64,000 nt of DNA from an uncultured virus (IMG/VR IMGVR_UViG_3300032156_000006). Its lineage: Duplodnaviria; Heunggongvirae; Uroviricota; Caudoviricetes. Under the pieces are notes generated by a model. That model was not told the DNA's origin, ran no database searches, and worked only from the letters and a program-made list of their open reading frames with translations. Shown in pieces: positions 2,615-51,947 of the stretch. Location of the stretch: IMG/VR virus record IMGVR_UViG_3300032156_000006; one strand, written 5' to 3'. The first letter of the stretch is position 1. Each line of letters opens with the position of its first letter. Position numbers and translations under genes: made by a program.

Positions 2615-4768
2615 TCACTCATTAACTATTTCCTGCTGAGGTTCAGGAGGTTCTTCTGTTTGCGGTGGTTTTGCTTTTACTTCTTGTTGCATCGGCTTTG
2701 GTGCATTTCTCGCGCGCCATACTGCTTCTTGTTCAGGAGTTAACTGAGGTGCCCCTTCAGTCTGGACAGGCTGTTGGACCTGCGGAGAAACTTGCTGTTG
2801 CGCAGGTGCCTCTTTTGAAGGAGTTTCAAAAGCTTTTAATGTAGTTTGCCCTGCAGGTGGTTCTTTTTCTTTATCTTCCTCACTCGTTGGTGCAGTTTCT
2901 ACTTTTTGCGGTTCTTCCTCTGCAGGTGCGACTGGCACTTCCGGCTTTGCTTGCACAGGAGGAGCCGCCGGCGCTGCTTCTGCAGTCGGTTGAGCAGTTA
3001 CTACTGGTGTAGCAAGCGGAGCCGCCGGTTGCGCCGCAGGCATCTTTATTTTTTCCAGTCCCCCTTGGCTTTTCACATACTCGTCAAACTGTGCTGCATA
3101 TTTAGGTCCTGCTTGGGATTTCAAAGTTTCCAAAATCTGTGCTTTTTCCTCAGGAGTTGACGCCTTCTGAATTGAAACCTTTACAGCTTTTGCTGCTGCC
3201 GGATTGATTTGCATGTAACGCGAAACAGACAAATCAGTGCTTGAGACATAATCACCCATATCTTCAACCTTTGCCAGCAGCACATTAGGATCTATCCCGC
3301 GCCTCTGTGCAATATTTGTTATTCGCTCAACAAAGTTTTTGTCATAAGGAGAAACATCTTGTTCATCCATCTTCATTTTTCCATTAATTCCTATATGAAT
3401 GCCTCCCTTGCCTAGTATGTCTAACGCCTGAGGATCCCAACTCGGGGGCGTTGGCTCTTCCTGTCCTTCAGCAGCTGGCTGCTCAGGTGGAGATACTGGG
3501 CGCCCAGATTCGTCAAGCTGGGCGCCTGTTTCTGGATGCTTGTTAGACATAATATTTTCAGCACGTTTCGCCCGCTTCTGCTCGTGTTCAGTCCATATCT
3601 GTTGTTCTTCGGGAGGCAAATCTTTGGTATTTATGACCTCCCTTGGCACCCGCTCTTGCGTTTTCTTAACAACATCTTGAAGCACCTGATCAGGATTAGC
3701 TTTTCCAGCGCCAAAATTCGCTTCGTGCACAGTTTTCACTTGCATCCAAGGTTCGACAACTTCATTTTTTAGATAAGCATATATTGCATTGTGCCGCTCA
3801 TTTGGATCAGGCCCGAAAACCGGAGCTAGTTGCCTATTCGTATACGCAATGCGCTCTGCAGCATTCTGATATGCCTTGCGCATTTGCATCCGTTCATATC
3901 CAGAAAGTGTCGTATCGGGAAACTCACGCTTGACTACTTCATTAATTACATTATCAACTTCAGAAGGTCCGAATGTGCCATCAGGATTTTTACTTGGAGC
4001 GGCCAATTGTTGATATTCGTTAGCCAAGCGCGACTGGGTAGTTTGAATAGAGCGTGCCGCTTCTGTGCGCGTATTTAGGTTATTCCTGTCATACAGTGCT
4101 TCAGGATTGCTCTTTGAAGTTTGCAAAATTTTGTCGATCTGATTTTTATAGTCTTCCAACCCTCGCGTTGCCATTTCACCAGGTATAATATATTGATTTA
4201 GCATATCCTTATAGCGGTACCATTTTTCCCGCTCACCTATATTTTGAAGCACTTTGCCGTGCGTTTGCAAATACTGTTGAATCGCCTCCGGTTTGTCAAC
4301 AGCCAACTCTGGCGCAATATTCATGACAGCATCCGGATCGCTGACGCCATATTTCTGCTTGATTTGCTGAATCGCTTCATATCGCTTCCTTAATGGTTCC
4401 GCCTGCGTTCTTTCCCAATTGTCAACTTGAACATCAAAAGTATTCGGATTCGTATACCACTCCATCAACTCTGGATTTGAAATAGGATCATGCTGCGCAA
4501 AATTCCTAAACTCAGGATAGCGCGCGTCAAATTCCTCTTTTGGCAAACTTTGCTTTGCTCGATACAGCTCAAGAAGATGCGGATTATTCGTATAAAACTT
4601 GTAGAGCTTCTCGTAGCGCTTCATTCGCTGTTTCAGTTCCTGCACAGTAGTTTTCTGGGCAAATGCCTGGCTTTTTGCCTTGGCGCGCAAATAATCAGCA
4701 AGCCATGCTTTTAGCAATTGCTCCGAAAGACTCGGACCTCTCAGATATGATGCAGTATCAGCTGGCAT
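2615..4768 (-). CDS. large helical protein with P/Q/A/E-rich tail, possible internal virion/ejection protein
   Basis: 717-aa ORF, GAGGT SD; function inferred from context only. Confidence 0.6.
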   Translation of the reverse strand: MPADTASYLRGPSLSEQLLKAWLADYLRAKAKSQAFAQKTTVQELKQRMKRYEKLYKFYTNNPHLLELYRAKQSLPKEEFDARYPEFRNFAQHDPISNPELMEWYTNPNTFDVQVDNWERTQAEPLRKRYEAIQQIKQKYGVSDPDAVMNIAPELAVDKPEAIQQYLQTHGKVLQNIGEREKWYRYKDMLNQYIIPGEMATRGLEDYKNQIDKILQTSKSNPEALYDRNNLNTRTEAARSIQTTQSRLANEYQQLAAPSKNPDGTFGPSEVDNVINEVVKREFPDTTLSGYERMQMRKAYQNAAERIAYTNRQLAPVFGPDPNERHNAIYAYLKNEVVEPWMQVKTVHEANFGAGKANPDQVLQDVVKKTQERVPREVINTKDLPPEEQQIWTEHEQKRAKRAENIMSNKHPETGAQLDESGRPVSPPEQPAAEGQEEPTPPSWDPQALDILGKGGIHIGINGKMKMDEQDVSPYDKNFVERITNIAQRRGIDPNVLLAKVEDMGDYVSSTDLSVSRYMQINPAAAKAVKVSIQKASTPEEKAQILETLKSQAGPKYAAQFDEYVKSQGGLEKIKMPAAQPAAPLATPVVTAQPTAEAAPAAPPVQAKPEVPVAPAEEEPQKVETAPTSEEDKEKEPPAGQTTLKAFETPSKEAPAQQQVSPQVQQPVQTEGAPQLTPEQEAVWRARNAPKPMQQEVKAKPPQTEEPPEPQQEIVNE

Positions 4769-9637: not shown

Positions 9638-9973
9638 TTATTTCACCAAGTCCATCGCTTTTTTCCTAATCTCGCTGTTTGCCCACTCGGACAGATAGAA
9701 AGTCTCGAATCGATTCCTGTGCTTGAACAGCGACTTGCAGAACCACCCATTTTTGATCAAGTCATTAAGTATCCTACGTTTTGAAGGTAGCACATAACCA
9801 CACGCGGTTAGTTCCGTAATTTTTGTGAAGGTATTTGCAGGCTGGTCAAACATCGACAGTACCATCTCCCGATAGCGAATTGGCAGGGATTCGGATGGCG
9901 CTTTAGTGTGCAATCTTGCCACTTTTGCACTTGATCCGAACCCTTGGCGTGCTCCACTACTCATTTCATGCAC
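9638..9973 (-). CDS. possible winged-helix protein
   Basis: RILNDLIKNGWF...ETFYLSEW wing-like pattern. Confidence 0.4.
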   Translation of the reverse strand: MHEMSSGARQGFGSSAKVARLHTKAPSESLPIRYREMVLSMFDQPANTFTKITELTACGYVLPSKRRILNDLIKNGWFCKSLFKHRNRFETFYLSEWANSEIRKKAMDLVK

Positions 9974-9981
9974 CGTTTTAT

Positions 9982-11135
9982 AGATTCCTGCTCGTGAAGA
10001 CCACTGGCTTTAGCCAGTGGATGAAACGAGCCAATACCTTTAAAACCTCTTTTCCCATATTAACACCTATGCGATTGACTATCCGCTGCGGCATAGTTTT
10101 GCCGACGAAGCGCAAGCTCAAACTGCTTGACGCCGAATACCAAAATCTTCAGCTTTTCCTTAAAGGCAAAAATGTTCCTCTCTACTCCGCCAATAAACAA
10201 CAGGCACTCCGCTTTTACCAGAAAATCAAAATGAAGGAATATCCTTTGAGTTTGCGAAACGACCTGATTGATGTGCAGAAGTCCAAGTCGTTCTATTTTC
10301 TGAAGGTTCCTATTCACGGCATTCGTGATGGCTTGCGTTTGCCTTTCAAGCCACATAGGAACATTCCTGAGAATGGAAAGCTCTGTGAAAGCAAGCTCTT
10401 CAAAAAGAACGGACGGTTCTTTGTCAATCTCACTTACGAAATTCCAACATCCCTTAGCACTCGTTTTTCTTCTGTCCTTGCCATAGATTTGGGTGAACGC
10501 ACCCCTGCAACTGCGGTGCTTTTGCAGGATGGTGCTGTAATGAAGCCCATGTTTCTTGGCAGGGAAATAAGAGGAATACGAAGGCACTATGCTTGGCTCA
10601 GGAAGAGATTGCAGGAAAAACATCTGCGAAAGGACGTAGAAAGGATTGGTAACGTTGAGAGCCGAAAAGTAAATGAAGTTCTCCACGGAATCAGCAAACG
10701 GATAGTCAACGCTGCTGCTTCTGCCAATTCCTGCATTGTCCTTGGCAGATTGCATAACATACGGAAATCCGCAAGAAAGAAGGGAAAACGATTCAATAGA
10801 ATTGTTTCCTCCATGCCTTTCTATAAACTGCAATCTATGATTCAATACAAAGCCGAAGCGTTGGGAATCCCGGTTGTCTTTACCCCTGAAGACATGACAA
10901 GCAAAACTTGCCATATCTGCGGGATGGAAGGAAAGCGAAGAACCCAAGGCTGCTTTGTTTGCTTCAGATGTGGGCAATACAACGCCGACCTCAATGGTGC
11001 TATTAACATAGGAAAGAGGCTTCTGCCCTATATGGACGGAAGCGGGGCTACTTGTGGACTCGCCCCTAACTGTGGAATGACGACCAATCATGGTTTAACC
11101 TCAGAAGCCACCGCCTTTAGGCGGTGGTAGTTCAC
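9982..11135 (+). mobile_element. IS200/IS605-family non-autonomous (tnpB-only) element 1
   Basis: Left-end (LE) hairpin ccactggc-ttta-gccagtgg 19 nt after TTAT; right-end (RE) hairpin ccaccgcc-ttta-ggcggtgg followed by tagtTCAC. Confidence 0.85.
10069..11130 (+). CDS. tnpB: TnpB RNA-guided nuclease (RuvC-II Glu replaced by Gly)
   Basis: LAIDLG, IVLGRL, TSKTCHICG/CFRCG zinc finger, NADLNGA. Confidence 0.9.
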   Translation: MRLTIRCGIVLPTKRKLKLLDAEYQNLQLFLKGKNVPLYSANKQQALRFYQKIKMKEYPLSLRNDLIDVQKSKSFYFLKVPIHGIRDGLRLPFKPHRNIPENGKLCESKLFKKNGRFFVNLTYEIPTSLSTRFSSVLAIDLGERTPATAVLLQDGAVMKPMFLGREIRGIRRHYAWLRKRLQEKHLRKDVERIGNVESRKVNEVLHGISKRIVNAAASANSCIVLGRLHNIRKSARKKGKRFNRIVSSMPFYKLQSMIQYKAEALGIPVVFTPEDMTSKTCHICGMEGKRRTQGCFVCFRCGQYNADLNGAINIGKRLLPYMDGSGATCGLAPNCGMTTNHGLTSEATAFRRW

Positions 11136-13415: not shown

Positions 13416-14755
13416 AAAATCACCGCAAGGGGACTACTGGCTTTAGCCAGTAGAGGAATTGCGGTCTTGCCGTATTCCTTATAAATCCTTGCGAATATAA
13501 GTCAGTTGGTATCTCTGTGAAGCGTTCAGTGACGTTGAATATCTGCCCCACTGTCTTGAAAGCATCAAGGCTTGAGGAGTTTTCCAAGTCCTCAGTTGAA
13601 CTGGCAAACCTCTTGCTTTCAAAGAGGCAAAGTCGTGGAATGATGGAATTGTATCGCAACGAATATTCATCCTGCAAGAAAAACACCTCGTTTCAGAACT
13701 GTGTCATTTTGGATATTCTGCGTCAGGTTGCCCGAAAGCCAGAAAGCTGCAAGGCAGTCTCCAACATCACTGTCAAATTCAACGCTGGAAAGAGCTATGC
13801 CAAATTCTTCAAAACTAAATCGCTTGAGTTTGTTGAGCTTGCCCTTTATCCCAAAGGCAGGCTTGCAGTCCCTATCAAAAAGGACAGGAGCTATCAAAGA
13901 TTTCAAACTCTCATTCTTGGAGGCTGGCAATGCACAACTGTTGGATATTCTACACAGGGGCATCTGGTCGCCTATTTGAACAAGGAAGACGTTATCCTCC
14001 AACCTCGCAAAAACCTTCTCGGAGTTGATGTGAATAGTAAGTGCTTTGCAGTTTCCGTTCTTACTCCTGATGGAAAAGTCCTGCATCAATCCTACCTCGG
14101 AAAAGACATCTGGCATAAGAGAAAGAAGATTATGGCAAGACGTTCCAAGCTCTGCTCGCTTGCCGATAAAGGAGATGGCAAAGCTGCCAAATATCTTGCT
14201 CGCCTCAAATACCGTGAAAACTGTTTTATCAAGAACAGGTTGGGTGAGATAGTGCGTGACATCACCAATCTTGCACTCAAGTTTGATGCAGACATTTCTA
14301 TTGAGAAGCTCAGACGGTTCAGCCGTAAAAGCAAGAGCTTCAACAGGCAGGTATTCAGGATTCCTTTTTGCAAATTCAAAGAGATATTGCAAAGTCGTTG
14401 TTTTGACAAGGGAATTATCTTGGATGTAATCAATCCCTACCACACCTCTAAATGGTGTAGCCACTGCGGTGCTGTGGCAAAGGTAGGGCATTGCTCTTCC
14501 AATTATTCCCTGTTCAAATGCAGTGAATGTGGGCAAGTGGTCAACTCCGATAGAAAGGCGAGTTTGGCTGTCGTCCTCAAATCCCTGCTGTCGCGGATGA
14601 AGCACAGAGATACCAATCTTGTTTCGTTCCAGCTTGGCAGTAGGCGAGTGCCAGTAAACGCACTCTTTTGTCCGAATGAAGGATTTGGTGTCAGTGCCGT
14701 GCATGATACATCAACTCTTACGGAAAGCCACCGTCTTTAGACGGTGGTAGTTTAC
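13416..14755 (+). mobile_element. IS200/IS605-family tnpB-only element 2
   Basis: LE hairpin ctactggc-ttta-gccagtag after CCAT; RE hairpin ccaccgtc-ttta-gacggtgg then tagtTTAC; excision restores the host ORF. Confidence 0.88.
13517..14740 (+). CDS. tnpB: TnpB nuclease
   Basis: LGVDVN, ISIEKL, TSKWCSHCG/CSECG, NSDRKAS. Confidence 0.9.
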   Translation: MKRSVTLNICPTVLKASRLEEFSKSSVELANLLLSKRQSRGMMELYRNEYSSCKKNTSFQNCVILDILRQVARKPESCKAVSNITVKFNAGKSYAKFFKTKSLEFVELALYPKGRLAVPIKKDRSYQRFQTLILGGWQCTTVGYSTQGHLVAYLNKEDVILQPRKNLLGVDVNSKCFAVSVLTPDGKVLHQSYLGKDIWHKRKKIMARRSKLCSLADKGDGKAAKYLARLKYRENCFIKNRLGEIVRDITNLALKFDADISIEKLRRFSRKSKSFNRQVFRIPFCKFKEILQSRCFDKGIILDVINPYHTSKWCSHCGAVAKVGHCSSNYSLFKCSECGQVVNSDRKASLAVVLKSLLSRMKHRDTNLVSFQLGSRRVPVNALFCPNEGFGVSAVHDTSTLTESHRL

Positions 14756-22941: not shown

Positions 22942-23334
22942 ATGGACTACAAACACAACAATACGTCGGTGGTGATGATAAACTATCATCTCGTATTTTG
23001 CCCAAAATATAGGCGGAAACTTTTGGTTGACGAAGTTAAAAATCGTCTTTCTGATATTCTTGACGAGGTAGCAAAAGAAAACCATTGGCAGATAATAGCA
23101 AAGGAGATTATGCCCAACCATGTTCATATTTTTGTTTATGCCGACGTTAGGACAAGACCAGAGATAGTCGTCAAGCGGTTCAAAGGAAGGACGTCAAGAT
23201 ATCTCAGAAAGGAATTTCCAGCTCTTCTGAAAATGCCGACACTGTGGACACGCTCATATTTCCTTTCGACGGCTGGCAATGTTTCTTCAGAGACAATCAA
23301 AAAATACATAGAACGGCAATGGGATAAAATATGA
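22942..23334 (+). CDS. tnpA: IS200-family Y1 HUH transposase
   Basis: YHLVFCPKYRR, HUH motif NHVHIF, LWTRSYF, catalytic YIERQ. Confidence 0.95.
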   Translation: MDYKHNNTSVVMINYHLVFCPKYRRKLLVDEVKNRLSDILDEVAKENHWQIIAKEIMPNHVHIFVYADVRTRPEIVVKRFKGRTSRYLRKEFPALLKMPTLWTRSYFLSTAGNVSSETIKKYIERQWDKI

Positions 23335-24344
23335 TATTGACCTACAAGCTCAAACATGGCAAGGACTTCTCCAAGGAACTCAGCCTTGCCAAGAAAGTTG
23401 CCGAATTTGCCATTGTCAACAGGTCGCAGACGAGCAAGGATGTGAAACACATCGGCTTGAAGTCAATGATAGCCAATCAGATTCTTCGGAAATACTCCCG
23501 TAGCAAGATGGTCAAGGAAGCAAGGTCGGTCAATCTTGGGATTCCATCTCAGGGAATAAAAGTCATCAGAAAAGAAATCCACGTTCCCTGTTTGAACTTG
23601 AAGATGCCCATTCGATTTGGTCAGAGGTTTGATGAGATAAACCAGATTGAGATTGGTAAGGAATACGCCTTTGTTTCAGTGACGGTGAAAGAGCCTGAAA
23701 AGTATTCTCCAACCTCAATAATAGGGGTGGATAGAAACACAAGCAAGCACGTTCTTGTCGCAGCCAACATCAACACTGGCAAAGTGCTGAAACTTGGAAA
23801 AGAGTGCCAGCACGTCCATCTCAAATACAAGCACCTGAGGAAACAGTTGCAGAAGAAGGGTAGGTTCTCCCTTCTGAAAAAAATAAAGCATAGGGAGAGC
23901 AACATTATACGCAATATCAACCACCAAATCAGCAAACGGTTGGTTGAGGAGGCAAAAAACAATAAGGCAGTTATCGTCTTGGAAAATCTGAAGGATATTC
24001 GAAAAACGGCAAGAACAAGACGAAAGCAAAGATACTCCTTAAACTCTTGGAGTTTCTATCAGTTAGGAGACATGATAGAATACAAATCCAAAAAGTATGG
24101 AGTGCCTATTGCCTATATCGCACCACAATATACGTCGCAGAGATGTAGTCGTTGCGGTCATATAGAAGCAAAAAACAGAAAATTAAAACAGTTCCACTGC
24201 GCCAAGTGCGGAGTGGTTGAGAATGCCGATGCAAACGCAGGTTTCAACATAGCGAGTTTGTATCGTCAAGGCATTTCTCGATTCAACAAAGAAAGTGATT
24301 TGTTGAAGGGCAGCACTGATACGCCCAAAGGTGCAATTCTATGA
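23331..24344 (+). CDS. tnpB: TnpB nuclease (compact, 337 aa)
   Basis: IGVDRN, IVLENL, TSQRCSRCG/CAKCG, NADANAG. Confidence 0.92.
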   Translation: MILTYKLKHGKDFSKELSLAKKVAEFAIVNRSQTSKDVKHIGLKSMIANQILRKYSRSKMVKEARSVNLGIPSQGIKVIRKEIHVPCLNLKMPIRFGQRFDEINQIEIGKEYAFVSVTVKEPEKYSPTSIIGVDRNTSKHVLVAANINTGKVLKLGKECQHVHLKYKHLRKQLQKKGRFSLLKKIKHRESNIIRNINHQISKRLVEEAKNNKAVIVLENLKDIRKTARTRRKQRYSLNSWSFYQLGDMIEYKSKKYGVPIAYIAPQYTSQRCSRCGHIEAKNRKLKQFHCAKCGVVENADANAGFNIASLYRQGISRFNKESDLLKGSTDTPKGAIL

Positions 24345-26306: not shown

Positions 26307-27599
26307 GTAAACTACCCACGATTAAAATCGTGGGCATTCCGTAAAAGTTGATGTATCATGCACCGCAACAACACCAACATTTTCATAGGAACGCATGAGT
26401 CCGTTTACAGGGACTCTCCTATTGGAAATCTGAAAACAAGTCTGGTTAGGATTATGCTTTCGCTCCAACAGGGATTTGATGGCAATAGCCAGACTCGCTT
26501 TTCTATCAGAGTTGACCACTTGCCCACAGTCTTTGCATCTGAACAGGGAATAGTTGGTGGAATGTCCGCTCCCAACAGCACCGCAGTGGGAGCACCATTT
26601 GCTTGTGTGCCAACTATCAATTATGTTCAGAGGAATGTTATTGTCAAAGCAACGCTGCTCAAGGATGGATTTGAACTCTGCAAAAGGAATGCGCATGACG
26701 ATTCTATTGAAAAATTTTCCTTTTGGTTTGAATTTGGAAAGATTTTCAATGGAAATCTCTGCATCAAAACGTCGTGCAAGTTTGATGACCTCCTTAACTA
26801 TCTTCCCAAGATTGGTCTTTACAAAATTACGTTCTGTGGTCTTGAGCTTGGCAAGTTTTCGTTTGGATTTGAAGGATTGCAGTGTTGCCCTGCGAACCAC
26901 GAGTTGCTTCCTTCTTGCCCAGATATGCTTTCCAAAATAGGTTTGGTAGAGAACCTTTCCAGTTGGAGAGAGGATGGAAATGGCGAAATGCTTGGCGTTG
27001 ATGTCAATTCCCAAAACATTCTTTCTTGGCTTAATTTCTTTTTCCTTGGAAAGATAAGCAACAACCTGACCGTCTGGCAACAGTCCATAAGTTTTGCAAA
27101 TCCAGCCGTCAGAAACCAAAGTGGAATATCGCTGGAAATTCCTGTTCTTTTTGATTGGAACTGCAATTCTTTGACGAGGGATAATTCCAAGTTCGACAAA
27201 GAAATTGGATTTTGTCGAGAAGGTCTTGCAGTTGCGGGGGACGTTGAACTTGACGCAGACGGATTTGACGGATTTGGTATTTTTACGCCAAGCATCTAGT
27301 ATGAGAGAGCAGACGACCTGAACATTGAAGGAGGTGTTTTTCTTGCAGGATGAAAGTGTCTTGTGGTGGAACTCCATAAATTTGGAGCAATCTTCACGAG
27401 AAGAAAGAAGTTGGTTATATGCAACAAGTGCGGCAGATGAAAATTTCTCCAGCTTCGCTGACTTGGAAGCTGTTGAAATGGTTTGTAGAACAATGGCACG
27501 TTGCATAATCCTAACCTATATTATAGACAGGGAAAAAAATATAAATACTCCGCAATTCCTCCCACGACTAAAGTCATGGGCTTCCTTGCGGATGAAAAG
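26307..27599 (-). mobile_element. IS200/IS605-family tnpB-only element 4
   Basis: Minus strand: TCAC, 19 nt, LE hairpin cccatgac/gtcgtggg; RE hairpin cccacgat/atcgtggg then tagtTTAC; excision restores the host ORF. Confidence 0.88.
26322..27506 (-). CDS. tnpB: TnpB nuclease, paralog of 13517-14740
   Basis: LGIDIN, ISIENL, TSKWCSHCG, NSDRKAS. Confidence 0.9.
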   Translation of the reverse strand: MQRAIVLQTISTASKSAKLEKFSSAALVAYNQLLSSREDCSKFMEFHHKTLSSCKKNTSFNVQVVCSLILDAWRKNTKSVKSVCVKFNVPRNCKTFSTKSNFFVELGIIPRQRIAVPIKKNRNFQRYSTLVSDGWICKTYGLLPDGQVVAYLSKEKEIKPRKNVLGIDINAKHFAISILSPTGKVLYQTYFGKHIWARRKQLVVRRATLQSFKSKRKLAKLKTTERNFVKTNLGKIVKEVIKLARRFDAEISIENLSKFKPKGKFFNRIVMRIPFAEFKSILEQRCFDNNIPLNIIDSWHTSKWCSHCGAVGSGHSTNYSLFRCKDCGQVVNSDRKASLAIAIKSLLERKHNPNQTCFQISNRRVPVNGLMRSYENVGVVAVHDTSTFTECPRF

Positions 27600-28665: not shown

Positions 28666-29040
28666 TTATTGTTTTTTTGGTGAATATTCATACAACATAT
28701 ATTTGCCCACCTGCCTTTTTTGCAGAAGTCCAATTCCATGGAGCTTTTTCAAAATGAAAAATACAGATATCCTGTTCCATTTAAGGTTTTTAGCGAGGAC
28801 AGTGGCTGTCACCCCCTTTGAATTCTTAACAAATTCGAGTATCTGTTTCTGTTTTTTCGTAAGCGTTTGTTCACTTTTACCCGCGCTTTGCTGTGAGAGC
28901 ATATGGACAATATTTTCATCAATGATTTTAGCATCTGTATCAACTGCATATTCAAGTGCTTTCTTTAGGTACCTAATGAATTCAAGTGGATGCCCCTTGG
29001 TTGCAACTGCAATATACTCAACTGCGTTTTCAGTATAAAC
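28666..29040 (-). pseudogene. C-terminal fragment of an AAA+ ATPase (lid) plus winged helix
   Basis: Frame open upstream of the annotated ATG: YTENAVEYIAVATKGHPLEFIRYLKKALEYA...LTKKQKQILEF...LKKLHGIGLL; no P-loop and no upstream start. Confidence 0.55.
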
Positions 29041-29374
29041 TTAACAGTTATCTTAACATATTATGTTAATTCTCTGCCACAGATTTCTTACAGGCTCTTG
29101 GTGAAAAAATTCCCATCCATAGCCATCCTTAAGGCCTGCCGTCATAACCACCAAACGCCTACTTTAAGGAATCTTAAACTAAAGTGTTGGTAAAAGAGCC
29201 TAGGTACTGTCAAGTCCAAGTTTTACCAGGATTCCTGGTCAAACTCTTGTTTGCGCTTGCTACAACCATCAGGCTCGAGCTGGTCCAAGTCGCGCGCCCC
29301 CACAACCCGCTCACACATGGGCGCGCACATCAATATGATGTATAACTAGTGAGCTGCAGGACTTGTTATACAGC

Positions 29375-29417
29375 AAGAAAAGTTTAATAAAGAAAAGTTT
29401 AATAAAGAAAAGTTTAA
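29375..29417 (+). repeat. 15-bp tandem repeat, ~3 copies
   Basis: aagaaaagtttaata x2 plus aagaaaagtttaa. Confidence 0.85.
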
Positions 29418-29553
29418 ACATCTCTTCACTTATAACATTTAGTTTATATTATTAAAAAGTTTATAGTTTAAAGGACTTATAAGAACACTTCCTATCACAG
29501 GCTCTTTAGGGCGTTTTCACGTCGTTAATGACAACTTTTGTTTATAGAAAAAG

Positions 29554-29945
29554 TGAGATGCATAAAATCGTGTTTTCACGCCATAAGATTAAAATTTTGT
29601 GCATCTCAACGACTTTCTTTTTTGAGAGTTATAAACTGTCCTGCGCAAAACTTTTACGTCGGAGAAACGATGTTTTGCGCAGGAAAATGGATTTTGCGTA
29701 TCTCATTTAGTCTTTAAGACAGAGATAAACTGTTTATAACAGTTTTATATTGTATAATTGTTATAGAAAGATTATACAGTACTAACGACGGAGAAAGAAT
29801 ACGTAAAACCTCACTTCATGCGTAAAACGCCCAAAACTAGACGAAAGCGTTTTACGCATAAACTCATATACTCTACTTTTTTTCCTAATCTTGAGATGCA
29901 TAAAACCCATTTTAACGTCAGCTACTAAGGGTTTTATGCATCTCA
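29554..29945. repeat. mirror-symmetric array of ten TRCRYAAAA-core boxes; candidate replication origin or packaging site
   Basis: Four inverted pairs plus two single boxes flanking an AT-rich core, in non-coding DNA. Confidence 0.7.
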
Positions 29946-30329
29946 TTTTCCTCCTCTCTAACCTCTATCCTCTCTCGTTATCCTTTATAGTCCGTCGTCG
30001 TACAGGCGCCTTCAGGCGCCTGCAAGCGAGCAGTATGTAAGTTATGTAATATATCTAGTATCTCTAGAAGCCAATACAACAGAAATATATTGGCGGGTCC
30101 CCACCCCAATCGTTGCCCGCCAAATCATTGGTCCTGCGGCCATCCTTGGCTGCTACAGCCCGGCTGCAGGCACCTACAGAACGCTGCACTAGCTGTAGAT
30201 TCATTATAATATAATGATTAACAGCATCTGGATGGTTGGGTGTGTGGTTTATGCCTCGGAATTGTTTTTCCTTCAAATAACCTTATTCCTTGCTTGTACA
30301 GCGCGCTTAGAACGCATTCTGGCAGGTAC

Positions 30330-30839
30330 TCACCCAATTTCATCTTTCCTAAAAACCACCACCGCGCTCGGAAAGGTGGCTGGGTAATTGACCAACTCCC
30401 CTTTCGTGTTCCTGCCTTTAAACTTTAGCCTGCCTTTGATAAAACAGATTTCCCCTTTCATGCAATAATCCCACCACCACCGCGTATCCGTCCTTGCCGG
30501 AAGTAGGCAAACCACTAGTGCGCCAGCCTGTGCTTCTTCATATGCTTTCTTTACCCACTTTGAAATTAAAGTTCCGTAAGGCGGATTCATAAATACTCTT
30601 TCACCCGCCCAGCTCTGCTTCAGGCCATCCTCTTTTTCAGTAAAGAACTTTTTGCACTTTGCGTTCTCTGGTGTGCAACAAGGGTCAAGGGTGAAATCAA
30701 ATTCCTTGTTCAACTCGTCGAAAAATGCCTGTGGGGTTTCCCAATCATATTGCCCGGATTTTTGAAAAGTAATCTTACTGTGGCGCTCCTTCTTACCCCG
30801 AATGTAATTTTCATCAGGCTGCATCTTAATATAGTGCAT
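30330..30839 (-). CDS. phage-type DNA N6-adenine methyltransferase (Dam-like)
   Basis: WETPQ.FF..L..EF.F.LDPC, catalytic NPPY, LLPARTDTRWW. Confidence 0.9.
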   Translation of the reverse strand: MHYIKMQPDENYIRGKKERHSKITFQKSGQYDWETPQAFFDELNKEFDFTLDPCCTPENAKCKKFFTEKEDGLKQSWAGERVFMNPPYGTLISKWVKKAYEEAQAGALVVCLLPARTDTRWWWDYCMKGEICFIKGRLKFKGRNTKGELVNYPATFPSAVVVFRKDEIG

Positions 30840-30889
30840 CGATGCGTTTTTAAGCTTTTATATTTATAATTCCTTATGGGTGAGAAGAT

Positions 30890-31417
30890 ATGGGATACAA
30901 CATAAACGAACTCCTTGACAAGCGCAAGCATGACAAGGAAAAGTTGGCCGAGCTTGCGAGAAACGAGCTCGACAATCGGACCTTCTTTGCTGTCAAAGAA
31001 GTTGAATTAGACAAAGACGGCAAGGAGAAGCTGATAAAAGAAGAGAAGCCGGTTGCGGCTAAGGAATTTTTTTCCCAGTTCAGTGAGGTGCTGGACGAAA
31101 TTGCGTCTGCAACGACTGCAATTACCAAATACAATGCAACTGTCCTCAAAGACTTGCTTGCGCACCGGGATGCTGTGCGCGAGAAGATCAGGATTTTGAA
31201 AGTTCTCAAACAACGCGTGCCGATTGACTCTAAGATCGAGCGCTCTATTCTCGCACAATCAAAGGAAGGCGAAATTACACGCTACCTGATGAGAACACAC
31301 ACTCCTCTCTTTGAAAGGAAGGAAGTTGAGAAGATGGCTGACGAGTTTGCAAAAGAGGAGCGCAAACTCAATACAGAAATCCAAAAGCTCAATCTTGAAC
31401 AAAAGATTGAACTTTAG
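30890..31417 (+). CDS. DIP1984/DUF6847-like coiled-coil hairpin protein
   Basis: N-terminal INELL..R, central AITKYNAT, C-terminal LNTEIQKLN pattern recalled for this family; needs HMM confirmation. Confidence 0.6.
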   Translation: MGYNINELLDKRKHDKEKLAELARNELDNRTFFAVKEVELDKDGKEKLIKEEKPVAAKEFFSQFSEVLDEIASATTAITKYNATVLKDLLAHRDAVREKIRILKVLKQRVPIDSKIERSILAQSKEGEITRYLMRTHTPLFERKEVEKMADEFAKEERKLNTEIQKLNLEQKIEL

Positions 31418-31427
31418 GAAATTAATG

Positions 31428-31706
31428 CTCATCGAAAGATGGGGGTGTTCATGGGCCGTGGTGGGGCGCTATGGCTTTCCGCCTGGAAATAGAAAGCCGC
31501 TTCAATTCCCTGAGGGGAATTTAGCTCAACTCTGTAGAGCGCCATATATTGAATATGGAGGTTGTGGGTTTAAATCCCATTATAAAATACCACATACGCC
31601 AAACCGCACAAACAGACAAACTCACAATAGAACGATAGACAAACAAACCATATACAATCTTACGATTAAACCACGCACAACATACTACCGACCACGGCAT
31701 GACACC
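31428..31706 (+). ncRNA. putative structured ncRNA with a permuted tRNA-like domain and a periodic AC-rich tract
   Basis: 16-bp closing helix 31444-31462/31691-31706; cloverleaf arms 31504-31580; repeats 31585-31688. Confidence 0.7.
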
Positions 31707-31960
31707 ATAAGAAGAGGAGATGATGAAGATGAGCACGCTGCCTGAAATGAAGATGGTGTGCGATTGCAAGAGGGAGAGTTTTATAAAGGAGGGTCACATC
31801 TACCATCTTGTTGGGGGATTTATGGATAGGGCGACAGGGAAGTTTACTTATGAATACAGAAGGGGTACTGTTTATTTAAGAAAGCCTACCCCGAGTGGGT
31901 TCTGGTATTGTCCGCATCCAGTAATTATGGCGGTGGATTGAAATAAAGGAGGTTGATATT

Positions 31961-32365
31961 ATGGTGAATGTTCCAGCAACTATAGATTTAATTCAGGAAG
32001 AATCTGCCAAACAAGGCGTGGCTCTTGCCGTTCCGGAAATCCGGGTGTGGCTCCATCCGCATCTTGCCGGGCAGCCTGGAGACGATTATTGCAAAAAATT
32101 TGCATCTTTCCAAGAGGCGCTTGATTTTATTAGAGCCAACAAGCCCGAGGCCGAAGAGCATCCTCTCTTGGCGTTCGCCGGGCGGGAGATGAATCTCTGG
32201 GGTATTCAACCTCCAATAACTCAACCTCCAGAACCCAAAGAAGAAGATAACAAGTCTATCGGTCCGGAATCCCTTGGATTGAAAGAAGGTGAAGGGGCCA
32301 AAAGTGCAGGCGACATCGAAATCAGTTGTTTGGCAAACGGCTATAGTTGGATTCGCCAAAAATGA
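31961..32365 (+). CDS. hypothetical protein
   Basis: 134-aa ORF with strong AGGAGG SD. Confidence 0.55.
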   Translation: MVNVPATIDLIQEESAKQGVALAVPEIRVWLHPHLAGQPGDDYCKKFASFQEALDFIRANKPEAEEHPLLAFAGREMNLWGIQPPITQPPEPKEEDNKSIGPESLGLKEGEGAKSAGDIEISCLANGYSWIRQK

Positions 32366-32384
32366 AAATGAAGTTGTGATACCA

Positions 32385-32573
32385 ATGCCAGATGCAGATA
32401 CCGCTCAACCTAAGTCGGAAACCAAAAAGGAAGACTCCTCCCTGCTCGGCAAGGCCCTTAACCAAGAAGTGAAAGAGCTAGTTGTCTCCTCGCAGGGCAA
32501 GTATCGCTCGATCCGGGAGTTTGCGCGAATTGCAGTGCAGGAAAAAATAGTTAGAGATAAAGGAATGAAATAA
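32385..32573 (+). CDS. RHH-like regulator
   Basis: GKYRSIREFARIAVQEKI ribbon-helix-helix pattern. Confidence 0.5.
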   Translation: MPDADTAQPKSETKKEDSSLLGKALNQEVKELVVSSQGKYRSIREFARIAVQEKIVRDKGMK

Positions 32574-33464
32574 TGCCCAAAAAAATAAAATTCAATTACA
32601 TGCAAAACGAGGATGCCTCTTGGGACAGAAAAACCTTTGACTTGCAAATAACCCTAGGTTTACAATCCTGCAAGACGAAAAAGGATGTGCTGGAATTGCT
32701 GGAAGATGTCCGGGCGCATGAAAGGATACTTGGGAAAAAGACTAGTGCTAAACCAAAACAAACAAAGATTTTGAGTGTTCTGACTGGTTGGGATACACCT
32801 CGAAAGATAACACTTCTAGAGATTTGATCATGCTCCACTACACCTCGTTGCCATTCCATTTGGAGACTCTAAGTATATCGAGAAGGATCAAAATAAATGT
32901 TGGGTGAGACTTGATGCCAAAGAAGAAGAAAAGAAAAAAGACTAATACAATGATAGAGGCAAGCATACCTTCGATTTTGTTAACTCTAGGTTATTTGTAT
33001 TGAGTGTGTAAAGATGGGAGACACCATAGTTGTAATACCCGAGGAATTGCTTCGTTTGAACAAGACCAAAACCGGTTTAGTGTTGCCGCGCGAAATCCCT
33101 CTCGAGTGGTCGTTTGGTGGCTTTGCGTGCGCAGGCTCTTGGAAGGAATTTTTTAAGAAAAAAATTGCTGGGCATATCCGAGATTTATGAGGAATCCTGA
33201 TTCAATTTCCTTAGGTCTTTGATTTCAGTTGGGACACTAATAAAGTGCCTTGCAAAATGATTTAGGTCTTTCCTTAGATACGATGCCCTAGATTTGAACA
33301 TCTTTTTACAGAGCCAATTACCACTAGCGTCTTTCCACCATCCGTCTTTTTTCAATTGTTCTTCTGTTTTTCCCCTTAGCTTCTTTTCCCTATATTGGTC
33401 TTCCCACATTGTCATTCTTTGAAGCAAAACTGCAAATTCAAAATCAATTTCATTCATACAAATA

Positions 33465-34172
33465 TCAACTCTTTTTTGTCATCCACGAATTTACGCACTC
33501 TTTTTTATGCCAGCTTCGCTCTCCTTTTGCCATATCGATTAAATACCATGTTTTTGATTTTGAAAGGCAAAAATCTACTGACCAAAAATCGGGCATAATG
33601 TTCGCAACTTTTTGAGCACAACTAGAAAGAGTAGTAATTTCGGATTGTGTTTCTTTATTCATTTCATTAGATAGCTCCTCCCAGTTCTCTACAGATGGAT
33701 TCGCAATGGCATCTGTAATCCAATATTCATGATGGCAAATAATTTTTCCATCTTTTATAAAATATCTTCTTTCTGGGCAAACAGGCATTTTTCCGTAGAA
33801 TGCCGTGTATTTTGAATCCATCTCAATATATTCCCTAAAGACAAGGGCGGTTGCATCTAACCCCAATATATCTGCCAAAAATCCGAACTCTATGGTCCTC
33901 TCAATATTTGCCATGAGATTTTCTTTGGTTTTTACAAAACATGTTTTTTCCCATCCATGCTTTGCGCTTGCTTGGTCTGTTCTTACAAAGAGCGGATAGT
34001 TAAGTTTGTCTGCTATTTTTTCAATTTCATCTTTGTAATCATTTAGTTTGTTGTTAATGAGAAATTCTGAACTGGTCATCTCATCTCCTATTTCTAAAAT
34101 TTCTGTTTTCGGTTGGGGTATCGGTAAGGATTTTATTTTTGGATACCAGAACAGCATGCTAGTTTCATCCAT
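33465..34172 (-). CDS. ATP-grasp domain protein (R2K/Cdc123-like)
   Basis: FVRTD..SAKH, VFREYI, ERRYFI.DGK, WSVDF...WYLID. Confidence 0.65.
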   Translation of the reverse strand: MDETSMLFWYPKIKSLPIPQPKTEILEIGDEMTSSEFLINNKLNDYKDEIEKIADKLNYPLFVRTDQASAKHGWEKTCFVKTKENLMANIERTIEFGFLADILGLDATALVFREYIEMDSKYTAFYGKMPVCPERRYFIKDGKIICHHEYWITDAIANPSVENWEELSNEMNKETQSEITTLSSCAQKVANIMPDFWSVDFCLSKSKTWYLIDMAKGERSWHKKECVNSWMTKKS

Positions 34173-34998: not shown

Positions 34999-36258
34999 TC
35001 ATCTCCTTTTTTCCGAAATATTTTCTATCACCCCTTCCAGCCCCATTTCTTTCTGCTCCCCGCTTTCCAAATTTTTCAATGTAAACTTTCCAGATTCAAT
35101 TTCCTTTTTGCCCAAAAAAAGCGCAAATTTTATTTTGCATGCATTTGCATATTCCAGCTGCCCTTTCATTTTCCTTGCCATCAAATCTGTTTGCACGCAA
35201 ATCCCCGCCTCCCTTAATTTGGAAGCGATTTTCACCCCTGCACCATAGCATTCATCATCAATTGTTATTATCACAACATCTGCAGGCGCAGAATTTTCAA
35301 TCCCTTCTTTTTTCAATGCAAACAATCTTTCAATTCCCAAAGAAATGCCGACAGCAAAATCCCCCTGCCCATAGAGCGAGAGCAAATCGTCATATCTTCC
35401 CCCGCCCGCAACCGAACCTACTCCCCCGCCGGCCTTTATTTCAAATACAGGCCCGGTATAATACCCAAGCCCCCGCGCAAGCGAAAGGTCAACTTTTACA
35501 TTTTCCATTCCATAACCATACTTTAGTATGCAAAGCAAATTCTCAATTTCAGCCGCGCCTTGGGGAGAATATTCTTTTGCGATTTTCAGCGCCTTCTCAT
35601 TTCCCTCATATTTTTGCATTATTATTTCCGTCAGTTTCTCCGCAGCCTCATTCCCAACCCCTGCCCCTTCAAGTTCGCCCATTACTTTTTCCTTTCCTAT
35701 TTTTTCCGATTTGTCAAGCGCGCGCAAAACCGCTCCCTCATATTTTTCGCATTTTAATTTTCTTATAATTTCATTTAGTATTTTCCTGTTATTTACAATT
35801 ATTTCAAATTCCTCAAACCCGAGCGCCTTCAATGCTTCTGATGCCATTGCAAGCAATTCCGCCTCGCACCTCATATCCGCGCTCCCTATTATGTCTGCAT
35901 CTGCCTGCAAAAATTCCCGAAGCCTTCCTTTTTGCGGCTCCTCCCTTCTCCAAACAGGGGCGATGCAATATCTTTTGTAAGGCTTTGGCATGGACGAATT
36001 GGCGGCAAACCTTGCCAAGCCCACAGTCAAATCAAACCTTAGCGCCAAATCGCTTTCTTCAATTTCAAAAAGCTGGCCTGCAATCTCATCCCCTGCTTTT
36101 GCAGCAAGGGTTTTTTTCATTTCAAGCGCCGGCGTGGAAAGAGGCTCATAGCCCCACCTTTGGTAGACTGCCCTTATAGTGTCTGTCATCCTCTCGCGCA
36201 GCATCATTTGCGCGCCCGAGTAGTCCTTCATCCCTTTTGGGGTAATATATTCTGCCAT
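34999..36258 (-). CDS. hisS: histidyl-tRNA synthetase
   Basis: PKGMKD, LRFDLT, WRREEPQKGRLREFLQ.D.D, LARGLGYYTG, GGGRYD.L, GISLGIER, anticodon-binding domain. Confidence 0.96.
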   Translation of the reverse strand: MAEYITPKGMKDYSGAQMMLRERMTDTIRAVYQRWGYEPLSTPALEMKKTLAAKAGDEIAGQLFEIEESDLALRFDLTVGLARFAANSSMPKPYKRYCIAPVWRREEPQKGRLREFLQADADIIGSADMRCEAELLAMASEALKALGFEEFEIIVNNRKILNEIIRKLKCEKYEGAVLRALDKSEKIGKEKVMGELEGAGVGNEAAEKLTEIIMQKYEGNEKALKIAKEYSPQGAAEIENLLCILKYGYGMENVKVDLSLARGLGYYTGPVFEIKAGGGVGSVAGGGRYDDLLSLYGQGDFAVGISLGIERLFALKKEGIENSAPADVVIITIDDECYGAGVKIASKLREAGICVQTDLMARKMKGQLEYANACKIKFALFLGKKEIESGKFTLKNLESGEQKEMGLEGVIENISEKRR

Positions 36259-51179: not shown

Positions 51180-51947
51180 ATGGTTAAAGATATGCCAAAA
51201 TTACATAGTCCGTTTGCAAGGAGAATGATAAACAGGCACTATGTTTGCATTCCAGAAATCGAGAAAATATATGACACACCTGAAGGTAAAATAATCGGTA
51301 GCCACTTGGTCGAACTCGGAAAAAATCTTGCGGACTATAAAGTAGTTGGAGACTACTCATGGGTGTTTGAAGATCCGCTAGTTATTGCAACTGAAAAACT
51401 TGACGGAACAGATGTTTCTATAATCATCGAAAACGGAGTTATAACATCCGTTTGGAATAGAACCCAAAGGATTCCTCCGTACAACAAAGGAAAGAAGTTT
51501 ATAACCGAGGCAATATTAAATTCCATCGAACGGGATTACTGTGATCTACCCGATGGGCAGTGGTGGGGGGAAGTCATCGGACCGAAGCTTGCAGGTAATC
51601 CATATACTCTTGATGAGCACTTGTGGATTCCGTTCAAAACGTATGCACAGGAGCATCTGCGATATACTAGCTGGGGGAAACACCCAAAAACATTTGACAG
51701 TATCAGCGGATGGCTTAAGACACTAATGCCAATTTACTCTTTGAGAATTAATGGAAAGGATTCGAAAAACCCTGACATAAATCCAAAAACAGGAAAACCG
51801 CATTATGCTGAAGGCATTGTTTTTGTTCATCCTGATGGCAGAATGGCAAAGTTGAGAAAGGACATGTTTTCGTTCTGGTATGAACAAAATCCTAATGCAA
51901 AAAGCCATAAAGAATTTGAACCAAAAGTTGATCCTGATGGTATCTAG
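51180..51947 (+). CDS. RNA ligase-like nucleotidyltransferase
   Basis: TEKLDGT (motif I KxDG), GEVIGP, EGIVF, MAKLR. Confidence 0.75.
   Translation: MVKDMPKLHSPFARRMINRHYVCIPEIEKIYDTPEGKIIGSHLVELGKNLADYKVVGDYSWVFEDPLVIATEKLDGTDVSIIIENGVITSVWNRTQRIPPYNKGKKFITEAILNSIERDYCDLPDGQWWGEVIGPKLAGNPYTLDEHLWIPFKTYAQEHLRYTSWGKHPKTFDSISGWLKTLMPIYSLRINGKDSKNPDINPKTGKPHYAEGIVFVHPDGRMAKLRKDMFSFWYEQNPNAKSHKEFEPKVDPDGI

Follow-up and report, generated by a model that had tools for sequence, protein, structure and literature searches.

A tRNA-Gln-like element with a hairpin-closed acceptor strand in an uncultured phage, possibly derived from tandem tRNA genes

The intergenic element and its fit to tRNA models

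A 64,000-nt stretch of DNA from an uncultured virus (IMG/VR record IMGVR_UViG_3300032156_000006; the whole stretch is referred to below as the window) is part of a new large phage-like contig and contains a tRNA-like element with a 5′-closing hairpin at 31504-31580 on the + strand. The element sits in a 300-nt gap between a gene for a DUF6847/DIP1984-like protein of 175 aa (30890-31417, +; Pfam PF20935 2.2e-7; NCBIfam DIP1984_fam 2.2e-6, below cut-off) and a small open reading frame (ORF) starting at 31720-31729, with everything in the + orientation. The original prediction, made from the letters alone, had described at this place a tRNA cloverleaf whose 3′ acceptor strand lies upstream, and direct reading of the sequence confirmed, base for base, both the cloverleaf body and a perfect AATTCCC complement 4 nt before the 5′ strand.

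The element opens with the perfect 7-bp hairpin AATTCCC-TGAG-GGGAATT (31504-31521, +), in which the 5′ arm AATTCCC (31504-31510) is the strand originally described as a relocated 3′ acceptor strand, the loop is TGAG (31511-31514) and the 3′ arm GGGAATT (31515-31521) corresponds to tRNA positions 1-7. An inverted-repeat search returned the same arms of 7 nt, 100% complementary and 4 nt apart, and the closed stem alone has a predicted folding energy of -6.8 kcal/mol. The tRNA body (31522-31580, +) continues with TA (U8-A9; 31522-31523), a 4-bp D arm GCTC-AACTCTGTA-GAGC (31524-31540), G26 (31541), a 5-bp anticodon arm CCATA-TATTGAA-TATGG (31542-31558; loop UAUUGAA with anticodon UUG and A33), a 5-nt variable loop AGGTT (AGGUU; 31559-31563) and a 5-bp T arm GTGGG-TTTAAAT-CCCAT (31564-31580; loop UUUAAAU). 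The trailer TATAAAATACCA (31581-31592, +) holds no complement to GGGAATT: the TATAAAA behind the T arm pairs with it at two of the seven positions at most, as had been claimed, and there is thus no 3′ acceptor strand. An ACCA in the trailer lies one base farther from the T stem than a standard 3′ end. When a downstream 3′ strand was sought in 31581-32000, no 7/7 candidate was found with G-U pairs allowed, and the 6/7 candidates lie within the next ORFs. The element lacks a 7-bp acceptor stem formed from both ends of one chain, a discriminator and a CCA end. Since no such stem can be formed between 5′ and 3′ ends, the RNA as transcribed would not be chargeable, in line with the original view of a non-aminoacylated molecule.

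The search programs agree with this description. Rfam RF00005 matches at 31519-31583 with 32.4 bits (gathering 29), the sole match of this model within the window, also at E ≤ 5, and the D, anticodon and T arms have the spacing of a canonical tRNA. The alignment is restricted to model positions 5-66 of 71, and one of the three aligned acceptor pairs is non-standard. With ARAGORN the window gave neither a tRNA nor a tmRNA, and 31400-31720 stayed empty at default settings, with -ps and with -ps80 (thresholds relaxed to 80%); the metazoan-mitochondrial mode of the program forced a 5/7 acceptor with AAATACC (31585-31591). The comparison of native and re-permuted sequence that had been proposed as a check gave a clear difference: the construct in which 31515-31580 is followed by 31504-31510 is called at default settings as tRNA-Gln(ttg), 74 nt, against no call for the native order.

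Within the body, the deviating positions are A33 in place of U33, as originally pointed out, U56 in place of C56, and a D loop, AACUCUGUA, without G18-G19, so that the T54-Psi55-C56, U33 and G18-G19 signature of canonical tRNA is not present. The TTTAAAT T loop had likewise been called non-canonical. It is indeed unusual; however, the exact 17-nt T arm was found at 13 IMG/VR loci, three of them inside phage tRNA-Glu genes called by ARAGORN, which suggests that it is compatible with tRNA and not disqualifying.

Perfect 7-bp hairpins with loops of 3-8 nt number 75 in the window (22.6 in block shuffles), and the chance that the 3′ arm of one ends exactly at the base before U8 is ~1.2 per 1000 (~1 in 850). 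The heptamer AATTCCC is not enriched in the window, with 13 matches against 13.46 expected. Energy minimization of 31500-31584 yields the four-hairpin fold (z = -1.48), a stability equalled in 16 of 200 shuffles; the stability of the fold is by itself unremarkable. A search of sequencing runs found no RNA run containing the region and one DNA run, probably the source, of which an independent assembly is identical across 30800-32400 at a depth of ~13, giving no sign of mis-assembly.

A syntenic tRNA-Gln and a second occurrence of the closed stem

Two comparators bear on the origin of the element, the first of them found through the gene that precedes it. Among 5.8 billion clusters, only five are related to the DUF6847-like protein; a closer homologue than that of L006, P0002, has 45% identity. 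Six loci with a homologue of its gene were recovered; four of these (L001, L002, L004 and L005) end 27-151 nt past the gene and in L003 the next gene follows directly, leaving only L006 informative. This locus belongs to the 115.8-kb IMG/VR contig G001, a distant phage which has only the Dam, DUF6847-like and YopX proteins in common with the window, and whose DUF6847 homologue is 40% identical over residues 57-175. A canonical tRNA-Gln(CUG) of 55.8 bits, with an A/U-rich acceptor stem and a discriminator U, lies ~100 nt past the stop codon, at the same offset as the window element, and is the sole tRNA of G001. Because a tRNA-Gln is syntenic at this offset, the locus can be regarded as a tRNA-Gln locus and the Gln anticodon in the window is unlikely to be due to chance; the comparison thus points to descent of the window element from a real tRNA-Gln locus.

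L006 also carries a perfect 7-bp leader hairpin, GTTGCAT-GGA-ATGCAAC, which ends 3 nt before tRNA position 1 and takes no part in the acceptor stem. It lies 81 nt from the stop codon, against 87 nt in the window, behind the same motif GCTTCA, and MAFFT places it onto the window closed stem in an alignment that consists of two very divergent sequences. L006 does not conserve the pairing between acceptor and upstream strand. By its own terms the original prediction would fail if related genomes had a normal tRNA-Gln at this place and did not conserve the upstream pairing, and this is largely what L006, the only relative reaching this far, displays.

The two intergenic regions follow a common order of a tetraloop hairpin, a G-rich stretch, a 6-7-bp hairpin with a 12-14-nt loop, GCTTCA, the perfect 7-bp hairpin, the tRNA(-like) body and an A/C-rich spacer. 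In the window the first hairpin is CTCATC-GAAA-GATGGG (31428-31443, +), 11 nt past the stop codon; its L006 counterpart is CTCAC-TTCG-GTGAG, and six pairs are kept in both, one via a two-sided change. The second, GGCTTTC-(12 nt)-GAAAGCC (31473-31498, +), lies 5 nt upstream of the closed stem, and its counterpart has 6 bp and a 14-nt loop. The spacer (31593-31690, +) is nearly G-free and contains short direct repeats (AGACAAAC and further ones). The overlapping ORFs at 31311-31745 (+), 31521-31769 (-) and 31666-31806 (-) gave no family match.

The body and spacer are enclosed, in both phages, by a possible long-range helix or inverted repeat of ~16 bp, all Watson-Crick with a G bulge on the 5′ arm (window 31444-31462, +, with GGTGT, CATG and CCGTGGT, and 31691-31706, +, with ACCACGG, CATG and ACACC, immediately ahead of the next ORF's ribosome-binding site; L006 3388-3406 and 3669-3685). 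The repeat sequences are wholly different in the two, and the 3′ arm stands behind a common CYACCGACC motif. The score in a Watson-Crick alignment test was reached by 5/200 (window) and 3/200 (L006) shuffles, a moderate result, and the energy test was unconvincing, with 22/300 and 56/300 shuffles equally good; the feature may be either a stem for RNA processing or a repeat at the level of the DNA. Downstream of its tRNA-Gln, L006 holds a second tRNA-like element (3702-3852) with acceptor GGGATGT/TCATCCC, T arm GCAGG-TTCAATT-CCTGT, anticodon loop CTCATAA (CAU), a poor D arm and a 76-nt insert in or beside the anticodon stem; ARAGORN calls it as a tRNA-Met with intron under relaxed settings only. 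L006 3403-3444 further gives a weak PreQ1-I riboswitch match (15.2 bits, gathering 39, E 2.1), in which a hairpin is followed by UAAAUAACUAAG that could pair with the hairpin loop; the window has no A-rich tail at the matching place.

The second comparator was found by pattern. A search of IMG/VR for the 5′ strand and D arm (GGGAATTTAGCTCAA, a gap and TAGAGC), in which AATTCCC was not required, gave a single match in the whole database, the 34-kb contig G002 (IMGVR_UViG_3300037125_000003), and a pattern requiring both stem arms likewise returned G002 only. No protein similarity between G002 and the window was detected. The G002 sequence reads GTAGG-TTCAAAT-CCTAC-AATTCCC-G-CCA-TATAAACA-GGGAATT and continues with TA-GCTC-AATGGTA-GAGC-A-TCTGC-ATATCGGA-GCAGA; the TATAAACA spacer after G-CCA is 8 nt and the whole loop between the stem arms 12 nt. 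From its layout, we interpret this stretch as the 3′ end of one tRNA-like unit, its CCA being encoded, and behind it the 5′ part of a second unit with the same acceptor stem. The closed stem and D arm recur there base for base, and the anticodon arms of the window and G002 are almost wholly different. Rfam detects two weak tandem tRNA-like units in G002, of 18.4 and 18.2 bits. These degenerate units occupy L074 1501-1643 (G002 29329-29471), the downstream one with an 8-nt anticodon loop AUAUCGGA and without a T arm. The native G002 element is not called by ARAGORN; after re-permutation, 157 of the 168 junction choices give a tRNA, its anticodon loop being 8 nt long. The Rfam YrlA model gives a partial match to the G002 junction (28.9 bits, gathering 69; E 2.8e-4 in a 451-nt search) over positions 27-81, which correspond to T arm, closed stem and D arm. 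G002 contains no TROVE gene and no canonical tRNA, and no tyrosine integrase, resolvase or TROVE gene was found in G001 or G002.

The G002 junction looks like the usual junctions between tandem tRNAs in cultured phages, being 75% identical to the tRNA-Asn|tRNA-Pro junction of Shigella virus Moo19. Among 15 tandem junctions in canonical phage tRNA arrays, two have at least 6/7 inter-tRNA acceptor pairs, one of these being a tRNA-Glu|tRNA-Glu isoacceptor pair, and none has 7/7; such complementarity thus arises naturally from duplication. The protein family encoded upstream of the G002 element was considered as a remote homologue of DUF6847, a relation that was not borne out (hhalign 0.5% for the single sequence, 2% profile-profile); one of its 36 members matches PF20935, at 5e-4. 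The family of this 212-aa protein occurs in 728 GenBank phage records. In Bacillus phage Bcp1 (L080 1504-2612) a member stands directly after a 10-tRNA array, and both there and in Pseudomonas phage phiPsa315 (L081 1495-2539) an unannotated gap of 426-478 nt lies behind it; the Bcp1 gap, the one that was read, opens with a hairpin and an A/C-rich stretch containing CACCGAC.

Closer relatives did not emerge. Megablast of 29000-34000 against GenBank phages gave no match, an exact 26-mer and an exact 21-mer of the element had none in IMG/VR, and blastn of 31495-31595 against phages returned short or weak tRNA-like matches only, the best being a tRNA-His of Bacillus phage G (74% over 62 nt). No IMG/VR relatives were obtained with the terminase or a single DUF6847 protein sequence, and the DUF6847 alignment had no match in GTDB genomes, nor did tblastn in phages. 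IMG/VR holds no canonical tRNA with this anticodon arm, and among one genome each of 185,579 species the same arm gave 46 pattern matches, all coding-like and none a tRNA. The literature searches returned no paper on phage tRNA pseudogenes and acceptor stems and no description of this layout.

The window further encodes a large terminase, a helicase, RusA, a holin, a Dam methylase, a YopX-domain protein and a thioredoxin. A histidyl-tRNA synthetase (34999-36258, -), an R2K-clade ATP-grasp protein (33465-34172, -) and an RNA ligase family protein (51180-51947, +) are also present, and despite the encoded synthetase neither a tRNA-His nor any other intact tRNA was detected in the window. The load of IS200/IS605-type elements is unusually high for 64 kb of a phage-like contig, with four TnpB-like ORFs carrying a Cas12f1-like TNB domain (9916-11130, +; 13517-14740, +; 23331-24344, +; 26322-27506, -) and one IS200-type TnpA (22942-23334, +).

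Origin of the element

The explanation that we prefer, with a probability of roughly 0.45, is that the element is a non-decoding derivative of a phage tRNA-Gln gene which arose from rearranged tandem tRNA genes. AATTCCC would then be the 3′ acceptor strand of a former upstream tRNA unit sharing the acceptor stem of the downstream unit; in a tandem pair with a common acceptor stem, the upstream 3′ strand would automatically be complementary to the downstream 5′ strand. The window layout would result from two losses, that of the body of the upstream unit (lost or replaced) and that of the downstream unit's own 3′ strand, and G002 from a different pair of losses. As the upstream hairpin would be transcribed first, it would close before the downstream sequence exists, leaving a transcript with a capped acceptor helix and no chargeable end. 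The hairpin would accordingly be a by-product of the junction and the element a young non-decoding remnant in the intergenic leader of the next gene; both this order of events and the absence of a function of the element's own are what we infer. In its favour, the deviations fall on translation-critical positions (A33, U56, no G18-G19), RF00005 aligns from 5 to 66 only, ARAGORN is silent on the native sequence, the tRNA of L006 is ordinary and the fold is not exceptional. The G002 module has the look of a tandem junction, and duplication supplies such complementarity by itself. Furthermore, a partner protein, a closer copy, an RNA run and a canonical tRNA having the same anticodon arm were all absent from our search results.

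Several observations weigh against this reading, and many of them favour the opposite view, that the element is a functional tRNA mimic with a capped acceptor. All body stems are fully paired (4/4, 5/5, and 5/5 with one G-U), so that a remnant would have to be young, and most positions of tertiary contact are in place (U8, A14, A21, A15-U48, G26, G53-C61, U54-A58 and U55). The closed stem and D arm (7 + 15 + 7 nt, 29 nt) are identical in the window and G002, and long neutral decay would hardly leave such a base-for-base recurrence. Within the first G002 unit, AATTCCC and the unit's own 5′ strand form only 4/7 pairs, against 7/7 in the inter-unit stem; in both phages the inter-unit hairpin is better preserved than the units' own acceptor pairings, which looks like constraint on the hairpin. 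The window and L006 intergenic regions have an ordered hairpin set in common, the route via tandem genes takes at least two deletions or recombinations with precise ends, and phage genomes seldom retain dead sequence. In a mimic, the hairpin would replace the acceptor helix and stack on the T arm across a nick, and the RNA might act through tRNA-binding proteins, either by an RNase P-type cut that punctuates a polycistronic transcript or as a tRNA-Gln decoy for enzymes or defence nucleases; it would work like a YrlA RNA without belonging to that family. The perfect 7-bp stem stands in the exact U8 register (~1.2 per 1000 by chance), the closed stem and D arm also occur in the unrelated G002 with a T arm directly before the stem and the YrlA-like score of 28.9 bits, and the encoded RNA ligase family protein, histidyl-tRNA synthetase and ATP-grasp protein suggest a phage that invests in tRNA biology. 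The YrlA RNA of M. smegmatis, whose closed acceptor stem is 7 bp long, is reported to be cleaved by RNase P and to receive CCA (Chen et al. 2014, PMC4201824). The same source warns that dimeric tRNAs yield YrlA false positives, and the G002 score is far under the gathering value of 69, with no match at all for the window element at E ≤ 10. The closed stem is known from only two sequences, in which it is invariant and offers no covariation; the T arm does not run directly into the 5′ arm of the hairpin, which is preceded by a 5-nt linker and a hairpin that is not T-like; the fold is no more stable than shuffles; and L006 has an ordinary tRNA at this place. We regard the mimic as less likely than a remnant, but as a serious alternative. 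Somewhat more tentative still is the wider proposal of a phage class of Ro60-independent tRNA mimics, in whose origin from tandem tRNA genes the acceptor hairpin between the genes was kept and each copy's own partner strand lost, with a variable break point (in the variable loop in G002, at 65/66 in the window). The window member would be an uncharged, tRNA-Gln-shaped RNA with A33, set in a conserved structured leader and serving as a decoy for tRNA-directed host nucleases or modification enzymes, or as RNase P punctuation. The original claim that the element is not the simple decay of a tRNA gene draws support from the perfect stems and the G002 recurrence; in view of the normal tRNA-Gln of L006, it is not established.

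A remnant could also have formed without tandem genes. If an older leader hairpin preceded the tRNA, a deletion of ~10 nt that removed the spacer and the true 5′ acceptor strand would have fused this hairpin to U8, and TATAAAA would be the original, intact 3′ strand of an A/U-rich acceptor, followed by the discriminator U. A single event would suffice and fits the intact body, and L006 offers a model in its 7-bp hairpin 3 nt before the tRNA-Gln, at a similar distance from the stop codon, behind GCTTCA and aligned by MAFFT, as well as in its A/U-rich acceptor with discriminator U. However, that alignment rests on two very divergent sequences, the exact U8 register would be a coincidence of roughly 1 in 10, and the recurrence in G002 of AATTCCC...GGGAATT-TA-GCTC as a junction of tRNA-like units would go unexplained; we consider this route unlikely. 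Taken jointly, the tandem-gene and leader-hairpin readings of the element as a remnant have a probability of a little over one half. It is very unlikely that the element is a circularly permuted or two-piece tRNA-Gln gene matured to a working tRNA, for which the UGAG loop would be cut (by RNase P at G31515), trimmed and supplied with CCA to give the acceptor end, the chains being held by the 7-bp stem or joined at 65/66 by a phage RNA ligase. Each tRNA part is indeed present once in permuted order, ARAGORN accepts the re-permuted sequence, G002 has a ready-made 3′ end in the upstream strand followed by G-CCA (157/168 re-permuted calls against 0 native), and an RNA ligase family gene lies at 51180-51947. 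Such genes are described from algae and archaea with a splicing endonuclease (PMC3978253, PMC3218864). In the window, the best leader/trailer duplex (-3.1 kcal/mol) is matched by 477 of 500 shuffles and no helix defines cuts at 65/66; the bulge-helix-bulge junction motif of permuted tRNA genes was not found. A33 stands in place of the near-universal U33, AATTCCC is not followed by CCA, a 7-nt chain would bind weakly, and a conserved maturation pathway would hardly have break points as different as 65/66 in the window and the variable loop in G002. Attachment sites of mobile elements often hold partial tRNA copies, and the window carries IS200/IS605-type genes, yet an integration scar is the least probable origin of all: such scars usually retain the 3′ part of a tRNA, whereas the first nine-tenths from the 5′ end are present here; the 64 kb hold no intact tRNA that could have been copied; no second copy of the T arm or displaced 3′ end occurs in the window; and neither the 82 window ORFs scanned nor G001 and G002 yielded an integrase or resolvase family.

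If the element is a remnant only, then tandem tRNA genes can decay into layouts that look permuted, and caution is called for when tRNA mimics are called from sequence only. If, on the other hand, the hairpin is under selection, it would represent a new topology of tRNA mimic, with a closed acceptor and a complete anticodon arm, and would show a route from dimeric tRNA genes to YrlA-like RNAs that in Chen et al. (PMC4201824) is a suggestion only. The origin of such mimics would then be testable in phages, amid active study of tRNA-targeting defences and phage tRNA countermeasures.

Comparison with known systems

The two-piece (permuted) tmRNA of some bacteria is a precedent for a permuted tRNA-like domain that works as paired chains. 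The window element differs from it in having neither a tag reading frame nor pseudoknots, and the ARAGORN tmRNA search was empty. The layout of a permuted tRNA gene, with the 3′ part upstream and a short linker at the acceptor ends, is present in AATTCCC-TGAG-GGGAATT, and to our knowledge permuted tRNA genes have not been described from bacteria or phages, where we know of no splicing endonuclease. The likeness to the permuted genes of Cyanidioschyzon merolae and some Archaea (PMC3978253, PMC3218864) lies in the upstream 3′ acceptor strand and the short linker; unlike those genes, the window has only 7 nt relocated, and its leader and trailer do not form a bulge-helix-bulge.

For the YrlA RNAs (RF02553), the original comparison holds as an analogy: both have a loop-closed 7-bp acceptor helix on a tRNA-like domain, would be unchargeable as transcribed and may have a tRNA origin. 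Membership of the family was rejected, since every feature that could be tested is lacking. The Rfam model, proposed earlier as a check, gave no match at E ≤ 10 in 31300-31800 and none at gathering or E ≤ 5 in the whole window. The order of the arms is closed stem-D-anticodon-variable-T in the window, against T arm-closed stem-D in YrlA. The motif GNCGAAN0-1G is absent from 31418-31520 by eye, the nearest sequence being AUCGAAAG in the first hairpin, with A for the first G. A Pfam scan of 82 window ORFs, which covered neither the other 36 kb of the 100.6-kb contig nor the host, gave no TROVE (Ro60) family; in the data set of PMC4201824, a Ro60 gene lies within 4 kb of YrlA on the same strand. 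Further, where a tRNA has its anticodon stem, YrlA has a Ro60-binding stem made up of the 5′ and 3′ ends (Chen et al. 2014, PMC4201824), whereas the window keeps a full anticodon arm and the break of the chain lies between T stem and acceptor instead of in the anticodon.

The closest likenesses are to phage sequences. With phage tRNA genes and degenerate array copies of them, as represented by the tRNA-Gln(CUG) of G001, the element shares a place behind a DUF6847-like gene, the orientation of the flanking genes, an anticodon of the Gln family and standard spacing of the cloverleaf arms; it differs in lacking a 3′ acceptor strand, in having its 5′ strand locked to the upstream one, and in carrying A33 and U56 together with a D loop that has no GG. 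G002 is set apart from the window by its unrelated flanking genes, by a T arm that precedes the stem, by a 12-nt loop containing G-CCA, and by a downstream unit that lacks a T arm and has 8 nt in its anticodon loop. The stem itself and the D arm TA-GCTC-AA..GTA-GAGC are nevertheless identical in the two phages, and the G002 T arm GTAGG-TTCAAAT-CCTAC is similar to GTGGG-TTTAAAT-CCCAT of the window, with one pair changed on both sides.

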